A stretch of DNA of 64,000 nucleotides. Source: Eledone cirrhosa. Lineage: Eukaryota. Shown here piece after piece: positions 4,095 to 58,857 of this stretch. The stretch covers positions 155,124,001 through 155,188,000 of the forward strand of contig OZ024742.1 in the NCBI GenBank assembly GCA_964016885.1, read 5' to 3'. The position numbers were made by a program, and so were the translations under genes. The notes below the pieces were generated by a model. It was given only the letters and a program-made list of their open reading frames with translations. It was not told the origin of the DNA and did not search any database. Positions within the stretch are counted from its first letter, which is position 1. Every line of letters begins with the position of its first letter.

Positions 4095-4762
4095 ATATTC
4101 ATCCTTCAATTTGTAAAAACTTCAAATGCTCTCTATAAGATCTTTCTTTATCTTATTACGAAGCATTTCCCCCTACACATAAATATAGTAACATTTTTAA
4201 TAGAAATACTATTCAAATGTCTTACTCTACGGCTCCTAACCTTGCACATAACATCACAGCTTCAAATTGAGCTAAACTACCTAGCCGTAGGAACACGTGC
4301 AACCCTGTAGTTAGTACTAACTGTAATTGTAGGAATCAGGTTGATTGCCCCCTATCCGGGAAATGCCTCTCTAGTAACATTGTCTACAAATGTAAGGTTG
4401 TAACACCCACGTCCCGTAGGGCCTACATAGGGTTAACCACCAATAGATTCAAGCAGCGTCTTTACATGCATACCCATTCTTTTCGTTACCCTCTAAGAAG
4501 GAATATAACGTCACTTTCAGCTTATATCTGGAGTCTAAAAGACAACCACACCCAATATAAGTTACACTGGGAGATCCTAGCTAGGGCTAGATCGTATAAC
4601 GGAAATAAAAGACCATGTGACCTCTGCGCCGCTGAGGCCCTGGAAATACTCTACGCCACAGACCACATCTTAAACAAAAAATCTGAGGCAATTTCGGCTT
4701 GTAAACATAAATTGCAGAAAACTTTCCTGTATTACAGCCCCACGTTATACCCTAACGGATAG
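4095..4762 (+). pseudogene. Penelope-like retroelement, C-terminal linker plus GIY-YIG endonuclease (Neptune-like), disrupted
   Basis: Manual translation upstream of ORF 4466: KYSNIFNRNTIQMSYSTAPNL..N*..NCNCRNQVDCPLSGKCLSSNIVYKCKV..RAYIGLTTNRFKQRLYMHTHSF..CDLC..E..ILNKKSE..ACKH. This shows the IVY/YIG motif, conserved R/H/E/N residues and a Cys-rich linker. In-frame TGA at 4268. Confidence 0.9.
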
Positions 4763-5750
4763 TACGATCTATACGTGAATATTTTACGTCTCGATGTGGG
4801 AGCTAAGTATATGTTTTGTTTATACATTTACTTATTTGCATAGGTAAGTATATATTATCCGTATGTTTTGTGAAGGTACGTATACATTCTCGTACGTATA
4901 TCTGATTGTTATGGCGTATAATTTTTTTTTTTTTAATATATTCTGGTACATATGGTTCGGCTATGTGTATACAGGAGTTTTGCGTCTGTGTGAGTATGCA
5001 GGTTCGTACGTATGTAGGGCGTGTGTATATGTGTACTTCATGTTTTGGTTGACTTACGTCTCCGAACATTCGTGTATTTACATGTGGGTGGGTGTGCGCG
5101 CTTGTTATATACGTATTTATTTATTTATATACGTTTATATAATTATTTATGTATTGGTATGCACGCTTATACACACACACATATTTATATGTGCGTGGTT
5201 TTGTTAACCTATGGTAAATGTTTGCGTATGCTTGTGTATGTACGTATTTGTTTGCGTGTATGTATTTATTTATTTCCGTTACTTCTGTATTGTATTTATT
5301 TACTTTGTTCTTAACTCTGTAGGGGAGATTCATTCGGTCTCCTAGTTAGAATTTTAGTCTACGACTTCTGCTATACCATTTACGTGGTTTTGTCTTTGCG
5401 TGCTATTGTTCTCCACGCCCCACATATGAAGTATTATCTTCGTTTTCTTCGTTCATTGCCAGAGAACGTCTCTATGCACCACCTAAGAGAACATTAGTCT
5501 ACGACCTCTTTTATACCATAAACTGGTTCTGTCTTTGCGCGTAATTGTTTTTCACCGCTCCTATTAATGACGTATCGTATTCGTTTTTTTCCCGTTCTTT
5601 GCCAGGGAACGTTTCCACGAACCAAAGTATCGTCTTTCTGTCTTCCTCCGGTTGCAACGTTTTTTGAAATATCCAGTTCTGCGTTTACAGATTGACTTTG
5701 TTAGTTTCAGAAGATCCCGTTAAGGGTGTAAACTTTAATCTGTTATTTTA

Positions 5751-5756
<6 letters not shown>
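4763..5756 (+). mobile_element. 3' tail (pseudo-LTR) of the PLE, with decayed hammerhead remnant and AATAAA, ending in (TA)n
   Basis: CAGAAGATCCCGTTAAGGGTG..TTTAATCTGTTATTTTAATAAAT at 5708-5756 matches 35421-35490 with a ~20 bp deletion. There is a diverged ~141 bp internal tandem duplication (starts ~5353 and ~5494). Confidence 0.7.
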
Positions 5757-5789
<33 letters not shown>

Positions 5790-6185
5790 TACATGCATTT
5801 TTATTTATGTGTTTATTTACAAGGAAGGAATTATAGCGGAGAATGTCAAAACAATCATTTCGTATTTTCTGAGATTCTTCTAAATATCTCTTCGGCTGCC
5901 CTAACTAAAACAAATCTTTGAATTTCAAGCTTAAAAGACACATCAATTCACATATACAGTGATTGACACACACTCATAGATATATAACTGTATATAATCG
6001 CACATACATTCACATGAAATACACTATTTACTTCATAGTGTCTGTATTCTCTGTATTTTAATGCACTGACAAATTTATATATTCACATAGAATATATATG
6101 GTCATATATACCTATACAAACAAACAACCACATACAGACATACCGATACATATATATCTATATACATATATATATATATATATAT

Positions 6186-24804: not shown

Positions 24805-27800
24805 ATATAATAATAATAATAATGTCATTTGTTGGCCACAAGGTCCGACATATAGGGGACAGTACAAAAGACTGGGACAGTGGGGGTTTACATATACAAC
24901 GTGTAAGCAATATAAATATACATAACAACATAACAAAAATACAAAGAAAATTCCCCAATAGTGGGGATAACCACCCATGGTTCACTCATGTACCCCACAA
25001 ATCCTAAACGAGCCGACGCTTCGAGAGCACCCGGGAATGGCATGATCAGAGTAGGCTCACTCACACGGGCCATTCTCGCCACATTCTCCCACCTTTCAGC
25101 AAATGTACAAGGGTCAGCACTTCCCTCTCCACCCTCATCTTCCTTTCCAAGTGAAACTAGAAAAAGTTGATGAGGGATTTGCCGAAGAGAAAAGTGTCTG
25201 TCTTCAGTCCTTTCATCCTGGTCCACCATACAACCTCTTTCGCTACTGCCACCAGACTGAGGAACATTGCCTGCCCTTCCTGGCCAAAAGAAGGCGGTGG
25301 GTCGATCTTCACTATGGACATTGCTGACAGCCGGATCCGTTCTACACGCGACAATAGCAGTTCGACATAACTCCACAAGTCAGTAATGCACGGACACTGG
25401 ACGAGTGCGTGCAGAATGGTTTCGTCGCTCTGCGCGCATCTCGGGCAGGTCCGTCTGACAGCGCCTCCGTGCCTGTAGAGTTTATCTCGAAACGGCAGTG
25501 CCCCCCCCCCCCCGGTTGAACTGCCAAGCGAGGGATTTTTGGAAATTATCCATCGTCCCCGGCTAGAAATTGCTCCGGAACAGACTGGTTAGTTCGGCTT
25601 TGTCGACGCCCAGATCCTCTCCCGGTGCGTCGTTGCACTTGCCCATACTAATCCTCCATAGAACTCGAGAGAGGAAGTTCCACTGAGCACATTGCCCGCC
25701 TGGTTGAGAGCAGTGAGTATCTGGCAACATTACAGATGCCAGTCAGGCAGTCTCGGTCTCTTCTTCACCCAGGACAGCAGCTCAGTAAAAGAGACGAGCT
25801 GCGGAAAAGCCCGTCTTACAAACGGCGATCACACCTGTTCACCGTTTAGGCAGAATACCTGGAGATACCGCCACCTCAGAACGTGTCTGCACATCATTAG
25901 CCACGGCATGCCCAGCCCTCCACGTAGAGGGTGTTGGCAGCAGATGGACCGCCTCACCAACGGAACCTGTCCCCTCCACAAGAATTTGAAGAGGAGCCAT
26001 TCCAAGTTGGCGAGGTGCAAACGGGGGCATAGGACGACAGTCAGACAGTAATAGATGACGGACGATGTACGCGTTCGCCACCTCCGCCCGACCTTTGAGT
26101 GATAGCTTCATCCCAGCCCATTTCTGGGTGAGACTGGCTACCCTGTCCGTCACTTCGTCCCAATGTTTATCCACCTGGAGGTCTGGCCCGAAACAAACCC
26201 CGAGCAACTATACCGTTCCATCCGTCCAGCCCCCAATGACGCTGTTGGACGACATGGACGTGCCTCTCCAGATGGCGAGTTGCAAGCCCTCCGACTTTTC
26301 CGGGTTAAGTTTTGCTCTCGTCAAACTTTCATATTCCTCCAATAAGTTGCCGACCACCTCGATTTCTGAAATGTTGAACACCATCACTGCGATGTCGTCC
26401 GCATAAGCTGACGCAGCCTTTTCGCGTCCTGGTTCGAGCGGGATGCCCTGCAACAGCTCCATCTTCCGCAGTAAAGGCTCGAGAGTCAATACGTACAGAA
26501 GGGAGGAGAGAGCCCTCCCTTGACGAACCGATCGCGAGATCTGAAACGATTCCGAGAGGTGGCCATTAATTTGACCACTGATCAGATGCCGCTGTGCATT
26601 GTAGCGACCCAGCTTTGAAGACGGGGCCGAAGCCAGCTGCCTTGAATGCTTTCGAATGCTTTCGATATATCTAAAATGATCAAAGCCCTACCGAAGCCAG
26701 GTTTACACCCTACCCTCTCCATGTTGTATCGCATCAGGTGGAGATTGTTGCGCCTCCCCAACCAAATCCTCTACGACAAGCACCTTGTGCAAAATCTTAA
26801 ACTCTTTGTTGAGCAGAGTTATGGGACTTAAATTGTCTAATGTGTCCATCTTGTTCTCGTCTTTCCTTATCAGCATCGCTAGGCCCCGGTTCACAGAACT
26901 GGGAATACACCCGTTCTGCTACCAGTTGCAGTAGAGCGCTTCGAGGAGATCGTAGAACATGTCTGGCATATTTACGTAAAGCTCGTAGCGTAGACTATCC
27001 ACACCGGGTGACTTGTGCTTCATGCGACCGACAAGGGCATACTGAATCTCGGCTGAAGTAATCGACCTTTCGCAGCGCTCGACGTTGGCCGTCGAGAGTT
27101 GCGGCAAGCCATCGAGGTAAGGACTGAAGTCCCCACCAGTTATGGTGTTTGTATTTGTGTTGTTGCTGGCGGTTTTGCCAGTGTTGGTGTTGGTTGTGGT
27201 CCTCGCCCCGGCGTCGGCAGCAGTGGAGCCCTTCGACCCCTTGCATCTTTCAGCAGTTGAGGGCAGAAGGATTGCAAATGAGCTTTTCCCCGACAAACGA
27301 AACAATGCGGCCCTTTACCCTCATTCATCATGTGAATTACCGTCCCGTTCTGAAGACGGATGTGGCCGGGGATTGTTTTGACATTCTCCGGCCTCATCTG
27401 GAGAAGTATCACCATGTCAAGCCTGGACTAGTCCTCTCTGGCAATTCTTGTTACTTCTATCGGGACGGTATCCGTCCCCTCCACAATCACACATCACAGA
27501 AGCCACCACATATCAAGTCCTGGTGGGATTTTGGAAATGCTGAGACAGGCTGTTCTTTTTCCCATGTGGGAGGTGTACATTATGACCTTGCTGGTTTTGC
27601 AAAGTGTCATCGCATGTTTCATAGCGAAGGCTTCTGACTTAAACAGCACCGAAATGGTGCCGTGTTGTCTGCCTCTCGCTATGTCTTCAGTGTGATCCCT
27701 GATGCACGTCAGTGCGACTTCGACATCTACTTGTGGAATTCAAGCTGCCCTCTTGGTTTCTGCTGAGATGCACCGTTCTGCGCTCCACTGCTTTAATAGC

Positions 27801-32444: not shown

Positions 32445-33094
32445 GTAGGTCCCGGATTGAGTCGGGGATAACCACAGTAAGTAAGGTACTCAATACATGG
32501 CAGAGTAAAATATATTTATTGTATAGAAGGAGCTTCTACAGGACTAGTACTGTTTAATTCAGATGAAATCTTCAGGAAGCTGGGTGTCATATTAAGTTCT
32601 GGTATTTATACATTTAGGTAGTGGTAAGGGAGGGGTGGTGGCTGGGGGTGGATTTTGGGGGAAGGATGGTATTTAGATACACAGGACCACAACTTTGGGG
32701 AGTGGTCAATTAGCCAGAGTGCTTTTGTAAAATAAAAGAAAAAGAAAGAGTAAATAAATAAGTAAATAAATAAATAAATGAATAAATAAATAAATAAATA
32801 AATAAATAAATGAATAAATAGATAAATGAATAAATAAATAAAATAAACAAAAACCCCAAGAATAGTAATTCAACAGATATATAGTAGGGAAATTTTTTTA
32901 GGTGGGTTGGTATTAGAAGATAAACAAGACCGAATCTTGGCACAGATTGAGGTGAGTGGTCAAGTTAACATACAAGCTACAGGTGGCCAGAGTGTTTTTG
33001 TAGAATGGAAAGAATAAAATATATGTACATACTCACAACCACATACATAAACACTTACACACACACATATATATGTCTACATCTATATACACAT

Positions 33095-33149
<55 letters not shown>

Positions 33150-33201
33150 AGAAAAAAGCACATACACACAAATATACACACACACGCATACACATACACA
33201 T

Positions 33202-33242
<41 letters not shown>

Positions 33243-33259
33243 TATCTACACATATACAC

Positions 33260-33733
33260 GGCTTCCGTGATTGTGGTAAAGTTCCTGGCGAAGTTAATCG
33301 CGTCAATCAGCAGGCTCTCTGATATGGAGGCGTAGTAGTCCTCGATGTCTAGCTGCAGGAAACGGGTGTTGCTTTTGTCGGGCAAGTCCCGGAACCATGT
33401 GATTGCCTCTGATGTCCTATTCCAGAGTGGGAGGGGTGAGGCAGCACGTAGTCTAGGTAGAATCCTGTCCAAGATCTTCTTACTGACAGATCAGACTTGG
33501 TCGGGTTAATCAGCCGGACCGACGGTTTATTATCAGAGTTGTTCTTGTGGTCTTTCAGGGTGAAGTGTGGGGACTTTACCCTCAGAGGTTCTGTCCGGTC
33601 TTCAAGTTTAAGGGAAGTGGCGATCTTCTTTCCGGCTAAGTTTGTTTCAGTCAAAGTAGTGTCATCAACTTTTTTGTACTTTGCTTTGATGACATTATCA
33701 GCAAGCTTGTTGTAGGTGTCGGGAATAACCGCA
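33260..33733 (-). pseudogene. PLE reverse transcriptase N-terminal fragment (frameshifted)
   Basis: HFTLKDHKNNSDNKPSVRLINPTKSDL / [42 protein letters not shown], typical of Neptune-type PLE RT motifs. Confidence 0.9.
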
Positions 33734-33811
33734 TATGTGTTTATGTGTATGTATTTGTATGTGTGTGTATGTATGCGTGTGTGCATATATATGTGTGTGT
33801 GTATATATATA

Positions 33812-33902
<91 letters not shown>

Positions 33903-34202
33903 GTATGTGTATGTATGTATGTATATATATATACATGTATATGTGTGTATGTATGTATGTGTGTGTGTGTGTATGTGTGTGTATGTATGCATGTGTGTAT
34001 ATGTATGTATATGTATGTATAGTATAGTTTATACTGAGAGACATACATGTATGTGTATGTATATGTGTGTATGTACGCATGTATATGTGTAGATATGTAT
34101 ATGTATATATATATATATGTGTGTGCATGCATATGTATATGTGTGTGTATGTGTATGCGTGTGTGTGTATATTTGTGTGTATGTGCTTTTTTCTTGTGTG
34201 TG

Positions 34203-34257
<55 letters not shown>

Positions 34258-34540
34258 ATGTGTATGTGCGTATAGATGTACACATATATATATGTGTGTG
34301 TAAGTGTTTATGTATGTGGTTGTGAGTATGTAAATATATTTTATTCTTTCCATTCTACAAAAACACTCTGGCCACCGTAGCTTGTATGTTAACTTGACCA
34401 CTCACCTCAGTCTGTGCCATGATTCGGTCTTGTTTATCTTCTAATACCAACCCACCTAAAAAAATGTCCCTACTATATATCTGTTGAATTACTATTCTTG
34501 GGGTTTTTGTTAATTTTTATTTATTTATTCATTTATCTAT

Positions 34541-34766: not shown

Positions 34767-34817
34767 AGCTTCCTGAAGATTTCATCTGAATGAAACAGTA
34801 CTAGTCTTGTAGAAGCT
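34767..34817 (+). ncRNA. Type I hammerhead ribozyme in PLE tail
   Basis: AGCTTC-CTGAAGA-T TTC ATCT GAA T-GAAA-CAG TACTAGTC TTG-TA-GAAGCT; 6-bp stem I; predicted cleavage after GUA at 34811. The mirror copy at 32531-32581 (-) has GAAA changed to TAAA. Confidence 0.8.
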
Positions 34818-34860: not shown

Positions 34861-35354
34861 TCATACATACACATACTTTCACACACACACATAAATCTTC
34901 ATACACCACAGACATACCCATCCACATTTCACAAACCACACCCATACACAGAAGTAATACATTATAAAGATGAAATACAAATCTATCAACACAGACATAT
35001 AGCAGCCATGACAAATCGGGCCTCTGCAACTAGGCTCTGACGTGCGCACGCCGGAATACCGGCCACCAAACCTCGGCTACATTAAAAGTGTTTTCTTTTT
35101 ATTTTACATTTTCCAAATACCGTTTCAGTCTTCACTCTTTCATTCTCCCTCCTCCCTCCTCTCTCTCTTTCATGCTAACCCCCTCCCTCTAATTTTGTAA
35201 CTTGCAAAAGAAGATTTCCGTCCAAATATTTGAAACTCTCGTGAAACCCTCTTGTATTGAAGCTTGAATCTAATAATACTTTGCCCTGTTGCATCACTGT
35301 ATGTTTTGTTATTCCTGAATTATATAAATATATATATATATAAATATGTATATA

Positions 35355-35572
35355 TATTTATTAAAATAACAGATTAATGTTTAAGCAAAGAATCGCTGCT
35401 TTCACTCTTAACAAAATCTTGTGAAGATCCCGTTAAGGGTGAAAGCAGCGATTCTTTGCTTAAAGTTTAATCTGTTATTTTAATAAATATTCGCTCTACG
35501 GTTCTTATATATTTGACATATATTTTTCCTATGGAGCCCTCTTTGGATGTTAGCCTTCAAATTTATTATTAT

Positions 35573-38581: not shown

Positions 38582-39407
38582 GGGAGGTACGTATATCTGT
38601 ATGTGTAATTCACTGTTTGTGTATATGTGAGAGTGTCTGTGTATGCGTGCATATATGTGAACAATAAATACATCTCTTTAATTTGAGCTAAAGCTATAGT
38701 TGAAGTAGTAGAAAAAATATCATAAAAAATGAATTCAGTAAAAATAAAAGACATATTGCCAATGTAAGGTGATATGATAAGATGATTCAAGAGTGCTAGC
38801 AAAAATAGATCTTTCCAACAAAACGCTTCGAACAAATATATCTTATGAAACGATCGAGTCAATGAATTGTTCCATAGAAAATATGTAGACAGCTAATTTG
38901 TCAGGAAGAACCACGAATGTTATTTGTATGTCTAGCATTTGGCTCTTCTTATCATGTACGTTTCATCACTATATATATATATATATATATATTTATTTAT
39001 ATATTATATATACAAATTTGTTTGCGCGTATATATATATATATACATATGGAGAGATAGAAAAAGATAATATGTGTGTGTATCCTCATATGTTTCAAACG
39101 TTAACGTGTTTAAGCATGTGAGCGCATAGAATCTGAGAATAGATTCATTTGGTGTTAAATAGATCGGATTTCTTCGCTTGAAAAGTGTACAACAAAATGA
39201 GAACAAACAACTGCTGTATACATGCGGCAACAAAATAAAATTAAGCTAAAGATATTCTTCCAATAAAATGCAATGATGATGATGATTGTGATGATGATGA
39301 GCAAGACCGTCATCTTAAAGAAACAAACATTTTCAGTTGAGTATCACAGAAGCAACTCCATAACTCAACAAATAAATGAGGAAAACCATGCAATTGCCTA
39401 GGTTACA

Positions 39408-39408
<1 letters not shown>

Positions 39409-39438
<30 letters not shown>

Positions 39439-39507
39439 CTTCTTCTTCTTCTTCTTCTTCTTCTTCTTCTTCTTCTTCTTCTTCTTCTTCTTCTTCTTCT
39501 TCTTCTT
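39409..39507. repeat. (CTT)n, about 33 units
   Basis: Seen directly; gives the poly-L/E/R ORFs. Confidence 0.97.
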
Positions 39508-40005
39508 GGAGGCCATGGTGAAAGAGATAGTATGGTGGACACGTTTGAAAGGGCTGAAGACGAGCACTTACCTCTTCGGTGATGACCTGATTAACTTTTT
39601 CAAATTTCATTTGAAAAGGCAAATCAGGGTAGAGAGGGAAGGGTTCTCTTCCCAGCATTTCGTTGAAAGATGGGTGAGAGAAGCACGAATAGTCCAAGTG
39701 AATGGGCCTACTATGTGTATGCGCCTGTAAATTAAAGGTGGACAACTGGGAGAGGGCACTTGCCCTGGTGGTCAGCGTCACCGTAGCTTTTTTAATAGGT
39801 TTTCTCCACGAATGTCCATCGGAAGTCTCCCCCCTATTGGGGAATTTTTTATTGTTTCTTTTTTTGTTACATCCTCTGTTTTTTTTTTTACACACAGAAA
39901 TACCCATTTGTACCGTCCTGTATTGTCGTGTATTGTCCTTAATGTCTTACATTGTGTAAAACCTTGTGGTTAATAAAGAAAGCATTATTATTATTATTAT
40001 TATTA
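39508..40005 (+). mobile_element. 3' end of the L1/Tx1-like LINE family with AATAAA and (ATT)n tail
   Basis: KEIVWWTRLKGLKTSTYLFGDDLINFFKFHLKRQIRVERE matches KEVVWWTRMKGLKTDTFLFGKSLINFF of the 25157-25378 copy. Confidence 0.88.
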
Positions 40006-40240
40006 AAATAAATAAGATATAAAGAAGTTATTTAATGCTTTTCTACATATATAGCATTTTAAACGCTTTCTTCCACAGGATAATACATTTTATCATAAAA
40101 AGAAAATACCAGCCCTATCCCGTGTACACAACTATTCCCTTATAATTATTTTTTTCCCTTTCTATCAAATACATAATCACCCAGAGTCATCGATAATCAA
40201 AAATTAATATATAAAACACAAATATATATATATATATATA

Positions 40241-43200
40241 TGAATATAGACATAGAATATTCGAAAATATTCTGTATGTTTACAATAAACATTTTGAAGA
40301 CCTAATCGCTATAGAATAGAATACGTCACGTATTACAATTAGATTCTCGATAAAAGCAAGGGAAGTAAGTCTACGCGTTTCATTCCAGTTCCTGTACACA
40401 GCTAAGTATTCTATAAGTCTCTAGCTGTGTCATTCTCGATAAAAGCACTGGATATGTAGTCCTGATGAATTCTAACAAGAATGAAACGCGTAGACTTACT
40501 TCCCTTGCTTTTATCGAGAATCTAATTGTAATACGTGACGTATTCTATTCTATAGCGATTAGGTCTTCAAAATGTTTATTGTAAACATACAGAATATTTT
40601 CGAATATTCTATGTCTATATTCACATATATATCGCTATTTCAGAGCATTTATTCCAATTTCTAATTTCTGCCGGACCGGCAACCGCTCTTTCAAACCAGT
40701 TCCTGTACACAGCTAAGTATTCTATAAGTCTCTAGCTGTGTCATTCTCGATAAAAGCACTGGATATGTAGTCCTGATGAATTCTAACAAGAATGAAACGC
40801 GTAGACTTACTTCCCTTGCTTTTATCGAGAATCTAATTGTAATACGTGACGTATTCTATTCTATAGCGATTAGGTCTTCAAAATGTTTATTGTAAACATA
40901 CAGAATATTTTCGAATATTCTATGTCTATATTCACATATATATCGCTATTTCAGAGCATTTATTCCAATTTCTAATTTCTGCCGGACCGGCAACCGCTCT
41001 TTCAAACCAGTTCCTGTACACAGCTAAGTATTCTATAAGTCTCTAGCTGTGTCATTCTCGATAAAAGCACTGGATATGTAGTCCTGATGAATTCTAACAA
41101 GAATGAAACGCGTAGACTTACTTCCCTTGCTTTTATCGAGAATCTAATTGTAATACGTGACGTATTCTATTCTATAGCGATTAGGTCTTCAAAATGTTTA
41201 TTGTAAACATACAGAATATTTTCGAATATTCTATGTCTATATTCACATATATATCGCTATTTCAGAGCATTTATTCCAATTTCTAATTTCTGCCGGACCG
41301 GCAACCGCTCTTTCAAACCAGTTCCTGTACACAGCTAAGTATTCTATAAGTCTCTAGCTGTGTCATTCTCGATAAAAGCACTGGATATGTAGTCCTGATG
41401 AATTCTAACAAGAATGAAACGCGTAGACTTACTTCCCTTGCTTTTATCGAGAATCTAATTGTAATACGTGACGTATTCTATTCTATAGCGATTAGGTCTT
41501 CAAAATGTTTATTGTAAACATACAGAATATTTTCGAATATTCTATGTCTATATTCACATATATATCGCTATTTCAGAGCATTTATTCCAATTTCTAATTT
41601 CTGCCGGACCGGCAACCGCTCTTTCAAACCAGTTCCTGTACACAGCTAAGTATTCTATAAGTCTCTAGCTGTGTCATTCTCGATAAAAGCACTGGATATG
41701 TAGTCCTGATGAATTCTAACAAGAATGAAACGCGTAGACTTACTTCCCTTGCTTTTATCGAGAATCTAATTGTAATACGTGACGTATTCTATTCTATAGC
41801 GATTAGGTCTTCAAAATGTTTATTGTAAACATACAGAATATTTTCGAATATTCTATGTCTATATTCACATATATATCGCTATTTCAGAGCATTTATTCCA
41901 ATTTCTAATTTCTGCCGGACCGGCAACCGCTCTTTCAAACCAGTTCCTGTACACAGCTAAGTATTCTATAAGTCTCTAGCTGTGTCATTCTCGATAAAAG
42001 CACTGGATATGTAGTCCTAATGAATTCTAACAAGAATGAAACGCGTAGACTTACTTCCCTTGCTTTTATCGAGAATCTAATTGTAATACGTGACGTATTC
42101 TATTCTATAGCGATTAGGTCTTCAAAATGTTTATTGTAAACATACAGAATATTTTCGAATATTCTATGTCTATATTCACATATATATCGCTATTTCAGAG
42201 CATTTATTCCAATTTCTAATTTCTGCCGGACCGGCAACCGCTCTTTCAAACCAGTTCCTGTACACAGCTAAGTATTCTATAAGTCTCTAGCTGTGTCATT
42301 CTCGATAAAAGCACTGGATATGTAGTCCTGATGAATTCTAACAAGAATGAAACGCGTAGACTTACTTCCCTTGCTTTTATCGAGAATCTAATTGTAATAC
42401 GTGACGTATTCTATTCTATAGCGATTAGGTCTTCAAAATGTTTATTGTAAACATACAGAATATTTTCGAATATTCTATGTCTATATTCACATATATATCG
42501 CTATTTCAGAGCATTTATTCCAATTTCTAATTTCTGCCGGACCGGCAACCGCTCTTTCAAACCAGTTCCTGTACACAGCTAAGTATTCTATAAGTCTCTA
42601 GCTGTGTCATTCTCGATAAAAGCACTGGATATGTAGTCCTGATGAATTCTAACAAGAATGAAACGCGTAGACTTACTTCCCTTGCTTTTATCGAGAATCT
42701 AATTGTAATACGTGACGTATTCTATTCTATAGCGATTAGGTCTTCAAAATGTTTATTGTAAACATACAGAATATTTTCGAATATTCTATGTCTATATTCA
42801 CATATATATCGCTATTTCAGAGCATTTATTCCAATTTCTAATTTCTGCCGGACCGGCAACCGCTCTTTCAAACCAGTTCCTGTACACAGCTAAGTATTCT
42901 ATAAGTCTCTAGCTGTGTCATTCTCGATAAAAGCACTGGATATGTAGTCCTGATGAATTCTAACAAGAATGAAACGCGTAGACTTACTTCCCTTGCTTTT
43001 ATCGAGAATCTAATTGTAATACGTGACGTATTCTATTCTATAGCGATTAGGTCTTCAAAATGTTTATTGTAAACATACAGAATATTTTCGAATATTCTAT
43101 GTCTATATTCACATATATATCGCTATTTCAGAGCATTTATTCCAATTTCTAATTTCTGCCGGACCGGCAACCGCTCTTTCAAACCAGTTCCTGTACACAG

Positions 43201-43451
43201 CTAAGTATTCTATAAGTCTCTAGCTGTGTCATTCTCGATAAAAGCACTGGATATGTAGTCCTGATGAATTCTAACAAGAATGAAACGCGTAGACTTACTT
43301 CCCTTGCTTTTATCGAGAATCTAATTGTAATACGTGACGTATTCTATTCTATAGCGATTAGGTCTTCAAAATGTTTATTGTAAACATACAGAATATTTTC
43401 GAATATTCTATGTCTATATTCACATATATATCGCTATTTCAGAGCATTTAT

Positions 43452-43457
<6 letters not shown>
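40241..43457 (+). mobile_element. Retrozyme-like element: ~9.9 tandem 311-bp units each with a minimal type I hammerhead, preceded by a 145-bp inverted segment, inserted in (TA)n
   Basis: Unit starts at 40385, 40696, 41007, 41318, 41629, 41940, 42251, 42562, 42873, 43184 (last unit partial, to 43457). 40241-40385 is the reverse complement of 40479-40623. Confidence 0.9.
40456..40499 (+). ncRNA. Minimal type I hammerhead ribozyme (first of 10; repeats every 311 bp)
   Basis: GT AGTC-CTGATGA-ATTC TAACAA GAAT-GAAA-CGCG-TA-GACT T AC: full canonical core, 4-bp stem II, palindromic CGCG stem III, cleavage triplet GUA (cut after 40492). Confidence 0.9.
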
Positions 43458-43482
<25 letters not shown>

Positions 43483-58282: not shown

Positions 58283-58838
58283 TGAAATAATTATTTCATT
58301 TATTGGCCACAAGGGCCGACATATAGGGGACAATACAAAATACTGGGACAGTGGGATTTTACAGACAAATCGAGTAAACAATATGAATAACAATAAAAAT
58401 ACAAGAACAATTCCCAATAGGTGAGGGGGGGGGGGCACACAGGGTTCGCTCAGGTACACCACCAATCCTGAACGATCTGTGCCTGTAGAGTTTATCTCGA
58501 ACCGGCAGTGCCCCCCGGCGAGGGATTTTTGAAATTATACATTTTCCCCGGCTCGAAAGTCCTCTGGAACAGACTGGATATTTCAACTTCGTCGACACCT
58601 AGATCCTCTCCTAGTGCGTCGTCGCACTTATCCACCACTAATCCTCTATAGAACTCGAGATTGGAAGTTCCACTGACCTCATTGCCAGTCTGGTAGAGGT
58701 CAGTGAGTGCCTGGCAACACTCCAGATGCCAGTCACCCAGTCTCGGTCTCTTCTTGACAGAGGACTGCAGCTCAGTCAAAGAGACGTGTTGCGGAAAAGT
58801 CCGCCTGACAAACGGCTTCCACACCTCTTCACCGTTTA
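58283..58838 (-). mobile_element. L1/Tx1-like LINE 3' fragment with internal deletion
   Basis: Similar to 24820-25010 joined to 25468-25847 (about 450 bp missing); LPVRDKLYRH. Confidence 0.88.
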
Positions 58839-58857
58839 ACTACTACTACTGATAATA

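Follow-up and report, generated by a model that had tools for sequence, protein, structure and literature searches.

An insertion of tandem 311-bp units is described here that is very probably a young, non-autonomous, hammerhead-bearing retroelement, a non-LTR retrozyme mobilised by Penelope-like element (PLE) machinery. It lies in a 64,000-nucleotide stretch of DNA, the window, and represents what we judge to be a new, very young family within this known class. How retrozymes re-enter the genome, and how PLE insertions acquire an inversion and a tail at one end, are stated as unsolved in the accessible portions of the retrozyme and PLE papers. The footprints of the present family connect retrozymes with PLE machinery and with a circular monomer, a step that until now has largely been taken for granted, and they yield three testable statements, namely that PLE machinery is used, that a single monomer is recopied, and that each strand uses one priming site.

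Structure of the insertion

Repeat analysis of the window defined a tandem array at 40385-43457 on the forward strand, with a period of 311 bp, 9.88 units and 99% matches, in agreement with an initial annotation that had described about 9.9 nearly identical units without an ORF. The bounds which that annotation gave for the array are exact, but the insertion is larger, as an inverted arm and the (TA)n ends had been overlooked. The inverted arm (40232-40385, reverse strand) is a 154-bp partial copy of 0.5 unit, 99.4% identical to the array and joined to it 5'-to-5' at 40385. Numbering the monomer from the base following the ribozyme cut, this arm runs from about position 298 via the cut site to about 140 (the short end), and the main arm stops at position 166 (the long end). 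The last 26 bp of the main arm (43432-43457, forward strand; monomer positions 141-166) form a PLE-type tail that is present at the right end only. Both outer ends abut (TA)n, the left target tract (40222-40241) overlapping the short outer end such that the exact junction is not placeable there, and the right tract occupying 43456-43482. Insertions of the family are flanked by (TA)n rather than by LTRs. The link to PLEs is supported most strongly by the overlooked inverted arm, tail and (TA)n target.

The array contains ten GAAACGCGUA sites, with predicted cuts after 40492, 40803 and onward to 43291 (40492 + 311n), and one monomer between two predicted cuts (40493-40803, forward strand) corresponds to the predicted circular RNA. 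The ten hammerheads claimed initially do lie at the expected cuts, but only nine of the ten cores are intact. The sole variant within the array, G>A at 42019, converts CUGAUGA to CUAAUGA (G5) and breaks the core of the sixth hammerhead (42013-42051, forward strand). Coding potential was absent from all frames of the array, in which the longest stop-free stretch is 59 aa, and the unit lacks the RT plus GIY-YIG ORF of an autonomous PLE. Its GC content is 35% (108 of 311 bases).

The hammerhead ribozyme and RNA folding

The first hammerhead (40458-40496, forward strand; predicted cut after GUA at 40492) recurs every 311 bp and is composed of stem I AGUC/GACU, core CUGAUGA, stem II AUUC/GAAU with loop UAACAA, GAAA and a palindromic CGCG. 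It is enclosed by an extended stem I (40432-40521, forward strand) whose 16-bp distal helix pairs 40432-40447 with 40506-40521. The CUGANGA core, GAAA, NUH and covarying stems I and II identify it, from its sequence, as a putative type I hammerhead. The description of it as minimal was not borne out: minimal PLE hammerheads (Cervera 2014) are without helix III bases and have a helix II of 7-8 bp, whereas here a CGCG helix III is combined with a helix II of 4-5 bp, as in the canonical metazoan type. It is more aptly described as a type I motif of canonical type whose palindromic helix III is weak. An Rfam scan of the array returned nothing at gathering score; the best match was Hammerhead_HH9, which reached 17.8 bits where 52 are required (E 0.21), and the HH9 model does not describe a short dimeric helix III.

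The proposal that this hammerhead acts as a dimer through its palindromic stem III fared better. The best predicted fold of the dimer RNA is a double hammerhead (z -7.0), with a predicted CGCG duplex of -9.5 kcal/mol, and in the circular monomer the predicted pair probabilities are 0.76-0.99 for stems I and II and 0 for helix III. The monomer is also predicted to be stably self-paired, both as a linear molecule (z -4.1) and as a circle (-67.2 kcal/mol, z -3.8), and the long-end site (160-171) is 83% unpaired in the predicted circular fold. Weak palindromic helices III that require a dimer are known in metazoan motifs (PMC4209133, PMC7229834, sections available).

Covariation was evaluated over 22 sequences comprising 15 young types and seven copies of a sister family. 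Of the stem cells in this alignment, 94.3% are paired, with both sides changed in 15 of 24 pairs; none of 500 shuffles reached the observed value and slid partners were 40-48% paired. Most of the double changes divide the young from the sister family, so that the number of independent events is small. At the first pair of stem II, A-U or U.U stands in place of G-C, and this pair is unpaired in 14 of the 22 aligned sequences, a weakness that may make cleavage slower. Ribozyme activity is not to be assumed, as in vitro cleavage was obtained with only one of nine Xenopus retrozyme dimers (bioRxiv 10.64898/2026.07.22.740005, accessible text). The unit also has a conserved UUCUAUAAG hairpin loop, which is a candidate promoter or binding site only; a promoter scan of the unit gave nothing above shuffles, its models being bacterial and irrelevant to a mollusc host.

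Family size and age

A search of the 3.0-Gb genome with the core motif pattern returned 14,378 matches (7,538 + 6,840 per strand) versus one for the reversed control, and one of the 100 core matches listed came from another element. The genome survey suggested by the initial annotation therefore describes a dispersed family and not a single locus. The tandem 311-bp organisation, the hammerhead in each unit, the dispersal and the covarying stems uphold the identification as a retrozyme. Short ends running into (TA)n numbered 1,230 (606 + 624) and long ends 721 on the forward strand, each with controls of 0; the reverse-strand long-end count of 2,375 is inflated by a variable gap in the pattern. 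From these searches we estimate that young insertions number roughly 1,200-1,500 in the genome. The family is young, given that many units are identical across chromosomes, and because it is both young and large every insertion preserves the unblurred trace of a single event.

An older sister retrozyme family has a unit of about 322 bp that is 66-82% identical to the 311-bp unit, with other ribozyme stems in the corresponding place and with ends at the same two positions (copies at L041:6830-7663, L036:3473-3820, L067:6950-7267, L073:319-652, L068:6880-7572 and L022:754-983). It must be very abundant, since it turned up by chance in three of ten fetched 9-kb PLE loci. A third tandem hammerhead family (L001, L007:4040-4515, L145 and others) has a unit of about 466-475 bp, a UAACAA loop, a palindromic CUAG helix III, inverted arms and (TA)n ends. 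Further hammerhead families unrelated to the 311-bp unit were seen at L032:4880, L030:4731, L062, L070, L071, L160 and L165, some of them as tiny inverted pairs.

Insertion ends and target sites

Most insertions of the family have two arms. Of the 15 unselected family loci met first along contig C1, 11 were two-armed and outward-facing, three were single-armed and one was cut by a gap. In two-armed insertions the tandem arms are joined 5'-to-5', and one outer end lies in the internal AUAUAUAU tract (about 131-140) with the other at 164-171, leaving a tail of 26-31 bp at one end only. The exact base of the short end is masked by the target repeat, being read as 131 in 45 of 81 cases and as 140 in 36. 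End pairing on C1 up to 113.4 Mb, using 54 long and 47 short ends and accepting pairs within 20 kb, produced 37 outward pairs with a median insert of 2.4 kb, every one of which combined a long with a short end (37/37; P 7e-12 if ends were independent). A further 27 C1 ends remained unpaired because exact patterns miss imperfect targets. The strict rule of one long and one short priming site is part of the value of this family. In L1 twin priming two target nicks prime two cDNAs and generate an inversion, as proposed here for retrozyme insertions; L1 primes first at its poly(A) 3' end and then at variable internal sites, whereas the retrozyme sites are both fixed and internal.

Arms exceed one unit in 45 of 56 cases, reaching a maximum of 16.4 units, and 19 of the 28 complete loci are multimeric in both arms. 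Across loci we counted 67 different 5'-5' junctions, and overlaps of 0-5 nt occurred at the inner junctions in 47 of 69 rows. Of 134 inner ends, counted once two duplicate rows were dropped, 5 fall within 10 nt of the predicted cut site versus 9 expected, and the ends show no clustering (P 0.67). A target duplication of about 15 bp was read at L041, the sole locus in a non-repetitive target; duplications in (TA)n are unreadable. Non-LTR retrozymes that have such duplications have ones of more than 4 bp. The inner junctions of L030, L037 and L041 at 251/14 sit in the 16-bp palindromic distal stem, which suggests fold-back or strand switching across the hairpin. A single case, at L025:1479-1905, shows a 5'-to-5' join between a retrozyme minus arm and the final ~110 bp of PLE-A, and this join is either a two-template chimera, which would tie the retrozyme directly to PLE-A, or one insertion nested in another.

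An inverted 5'-truncated copy, a 30-40-bp tail at one end and a bias for (TA)n are described as marks of PLEs (PMC8557442, PMC3846280, sections available), and the retrozyme insertions carry this inverted-copy-plus-tail signature. A (TA)n target is typical of the Hydra and Naiad clades. The anole PLE protein, in purified form, is reported in the available part of PMC11167929 to nick both strands and to extend them, with two internal starts defining the tail.

Penelope-like elements and the mobilising partner

The PLE fragments present in the window pointed to three families whose long ORFs are intact. PLE-A, with an intact ORF of 713 aa and 65,452 first-look candidates, is represented by fragments at 4136-5819 (forward strand) and 35321-35490. 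PLE-B, which like PLE-C has an intact ORF of 758 aa, is represented by a reverse transcriptase fragment at 33083-34401 (reverse strand) and by a pLTR hammerhead ending in (TA)n at 34772-34815 (forward strand). All three families have RW[RK], DKT and CxCx5C, the motifs by which the Hydra clade is described; Atlas placed PLE-A in a PLE-like cluster and confirmed nothing more. Their insertions are also found in (TA)n with one long and one short end, in 7 of 7 end pairs for PLE-A and in 4 of 5 for PLE-B/C, the exception joining two adjacent insertions. Twelve PLE-C mini-insertions (L171-L182), tight pairs picked among the 100 matches listed, have two short arms and combine a long with a short end in all 12. 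These arms halt shortly before the ribozyme core, a few bases on its 5' side and some 30 nt below a TATA-like box, which suggests run-off at a transcription start with uncut RNA as the template.

The PLE-C hammerhead has 3,782 exact copies in the genome and agrees with the commonest type of retrozyme in 26 of 28 nt across the core and stem II, with a score of 40 that does not exceed shuffles (maxima 42 and 37). For PLE-B, too, the resemblance is confined to the ribozyme core and stem II. None of the three Hydra families that were compared, out of a larger number in this genome, has the retrozyme body in its sequence. PLE-A has no sequence in common with the retrozyme and no canonical hammerhead core; it has a CAGAAGA look-alike about 55 nt before the short end, and its tandem copies pass from the long end into the ORF. 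Identity of PLE-C pLTRs within versus between loci was mixed, with no clear pattern. A block on contig C14 was considered as a longer partner element and rejected, being a DNA-amplified array interrupted by (TA)n. As no partner homology extends beyond the core and stem II, the partner is named at the level of the clade, and a Hydra-clade PLE is the likely mobilising element.

Sequence variants and the nature of the template

Variant counts left out L001 (a small contig with an irregular last unit) and L032 (another element), used the refetched loci L042-L045 in place of L009, L011, L016 and L017, and set L018 and L019 aside as a control; many of L076-L135 were fetched in part only. The 73 loci with at least two full units fall into 33 sequence types. 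Of these types, 23 occur once, and each is fixed throughout its units, some in long arrays (L012, with 11.3 + 4.1 units). In the 33 loci with full units in both arms, fixed variants were present in both in every case. Across the 55 loci with at least three units, 306 of 342 units match the locus consensus, and none of the 45 private changes is a minor variant shared between units. The unequal-crossover type of pattern that the initial annotation had weighed against its own reading was thus not seen. Some template mixing or gene conversion does happen, as L045 has one unit of another subtype and single units of L042 and L043 differ at position 89.

Because variants are fixed in all units and both arms, arms are multimeric and there is no preferred inner stop, the template is probably one unit long, has no 5' end and is recopied from both primers, that is, a circle. 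A fixed 5' end leaves a visible mark, as can be seen in the 12 selected PLE-C pairs, whose arms stop at a fixed point. Self-closing 340-nt contigs (one from each of runs X4, X5 and X6, with one variant each and depths of 14-34) were also considered as circles and set aside, as a DNA tandem gives the same loop.

A full cycle, in which a retrozyme circle is rolled into (TA)n by a PLE enzyme, is accordingly the reading that we favour as the probable one; it adds a presumed cleavage, circle and enzyme to the observed anatomy, end rule, variant pattern and covariation. The array would be transcribed, and adjacent hammerheads would pair via CGCG and release 311-nt monomers that are then ligated to circles. 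The RT-endonuclease of a PLE, most likely of the Hydra clade, would nick both (TA)n strands, and each nick would prime within that one RNA at an internal site of its own, either the AUAUAUAU tract (about 131-140) or a site 26-31 nt further 3' (164-171), with one priming site of each kind used per event. Both enzymes would circle the template a variable number of times, and the two cDNAs would be joined at their far ends with a 0-5-nt overlap. PLE-driven rolling-circle copying, put forward in the initial annotation, gains support from the end rule (37/37), the tail, the (TA)n target and the variant pattern. Several points run against the cycle, besides the weak first pair of stem II, the poor in vitro cleavage of Xenopus dimers, the missing PLE with a shared body and the occasional mixed units described above. 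In the available text of PMC11167929 the anole PLE used uncleaved RNA in vitro, with the hammerhead dispensable, and its starts were non-homologous to the target and did not differ between strands; moreover, homogeneous parent arrays also yield homogeneous daughters through a linear transcript.

The last of these points leads to the strongest competing explanation, though an unlikely one, in which the same PLE enzyme and priming sites act on a long, uncleaved, linear array transcript and the hammerhead is a passenger. Unprocessed RNA is the main substrate of the anole PLE (PMC11167929, as far as available), PLE-C mini-insertions run across the cut site and end at a constant 5' point as expected for uncut linear RNA, and PLE-A makes seamless tandems without a recognisable hammerhead core. 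A linear template nevertheless predicts that a new mutation will appear in one unit only and that arms will only shorten; the unique types are instead fixed in all units (23 of 33), shared minor variants are absent from the 55 loci, and compensatory change preserves the ribozyme stems.

Multimers could also form without a circle if the reverse transcriptase jumped between cleaved linear monomers, for which the rare foreign-subtype unit inside the L045 array and the only recurrent indel among the types, 3 nt from the cut site, can be cited. We consider this improbable: a pool of 33 types should give mosaics and a foreign-subtype unit was found in one of 55 loci, inner ends show no excess at the cut site, and the unit-unit junctions are exact. 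Slightly less probable still is that short PLE-type insertions were later lengthened as DNA by unequal crossover, slippage or a small DNA circle, in the manner of a satellite. Local tandem amplification was proposed by Li et al. for Xenopus retrozymes (bioRxiv 10.64898/2026.07.22.740005, accessible text), and it has clearly occurred at L018/L019 (contig C14, 25205000-25224800), a retrozyme block of at least 20 kb with (TA)n interruptions and DNA-amplified higher-order repeats. This block contains six minor variants, each common to 2-12 of 36 units, so DNA-level growth would have been visible in the ordinary loci, where such variants are expected under this explanation and none was found; both arms are, in addition, multimeric in most complete loci. 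An assembly artefact, named initially as a refuting outcome, has a negligible probability: identical units can be miscounted and two arms (L003, L010) run into assembly gaps, but the distinct 5'-5' junctions, locus-specific variants and private base in unit 6 are against it, as are six other inverted-forward joins in public run X1, which is perhaps not independent of the assembly.

A-to-G changes

Relative to the commonest type, from which polarity was taken, the fixed changes, read on the RNA strand, comprise 11 A>G sites and three T>C sites (binomial P 0.012, for a bias spotted after the fact). The corresponding ratio for private changes is 3:6 (Fisher P 0.04 versus fixed changes). A-to-I editing has a 5' neighbour preference, against which the A>G sites were compared; a 5' G precedes none of them and a 5' U precedes seven. 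Sites 89, 277 and 21 recur on several backgrounds. The bias tentatively fits A-to-I editing of the RNA intermediate, and the host group is known for heavy RNA editing. It also fits selection tolerating G.U pairs, recombination between types, or wrong polarity. We consider it possible, if rather doubtful, that a dimeric Hydra-clade enzyme, priming each target strand at one of two fixed sites of a single 311-nt circle, rolls out two multimer arms and that A-to-I edits of that circle become fixed genomic variants. Such edits would be inherited because each generation passes through a single RNA molecule, and if this is true RNA editing drives the inherited diversity of a retrozyme family.

Relation to known elements

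Retrozyme circles and cleavage were demonstrated in coral, mussel and axolotl, with rolling-circle copying by PLEs offered as a hypothesis (PMC7229834, sections available). A comparison of 35 genomes, none molluscan, reported co-occurrence of retrozymes with PLEs and pLTR similarity, with little evidence on the life cycle in its accessible text (bioRxiv 10.64898/2026.07.22.740005), and the available part of a review (PMC7761336) has no information on retrozyme insertion ends. Among the open-literature papers listed by our searches, none dealt with retrozymes in cephalopods, with retrozyme insertions that have two arms or with the editing of retrozymes in animals.

The present family resembles metazoan non-LTR retrozymes, as characterised in the same sections of PMC7229834, in its non-coding tandem unit within the range of 150-450 bp, a single type I hammerhead in each unit, GC content below 50%, self-paired fold and thousands of copies, and it shares with axolotl motifs the weak palindromic helix III and a U.U at the base of helix II. 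It differs from the non-LTR retrozymes described there in its cephalopod-like host, two-armed inverted layout, tail and (TA)n target; circles and cleavage of those earlier retrozymes are experimental, whereas the present family is known from sequence and predicted folds. Likeness to Hydra-clade EN+ PLEs extends to the inverted 5'-truncated copy, one-end tail of about 30 bp and (TA)n target (PMC8557442, PMC3846280), and to an internal RT start and a hammerhead near the ends (the same sources and PMC11167929, all in their available parts). Unlike those PLEs, the family has no ORF, a 311-bp unit in place of 3-5 kb and arms that are often many units long; compared with the local Hydra families it has no common body sequence and a tail of 26-31 bp versus about 65-90 bp. 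Non-autonomous Chlamys elements such as MRC1 are likewise non-coding PLE parasites inserted as multiple head-to-tail copies, and are described in the available text of PMC8557442 as having a partner-like 3' end and mostly no canonical hammerheads. The 311-bp family, by contrast, has a conserved hammerhead and no partner homology was found for it.

The family supplies several reagents, including a 311-nt RNA with mapped starts, a (TA)n target and intact Hydra ORFs of 713 and 758 aa, and an enzyme that writes multimers of small circles into DNA would serve as a tool.

Other features of the window and genome

Decayed LINE-type fragments with RVT_1 and zf-RVT matches are located in the window at 25157-27637, 39380-39730 and 58492-58839. 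Elsewhere in the genome, molluscan haemocyanin domains gave 39 matches, at seven per gene. Seven units may point to an octopod, and a comparison of one haemocyanin piece with solved structures narrowed the host no further than the molluscs. Five haemocyanin genes with seven domain matches each lie on C1 (173.75-173.91 Mb) and C26 (21.93-22.02 Mb), and the two on C26 face each other, with an extra decayed match.
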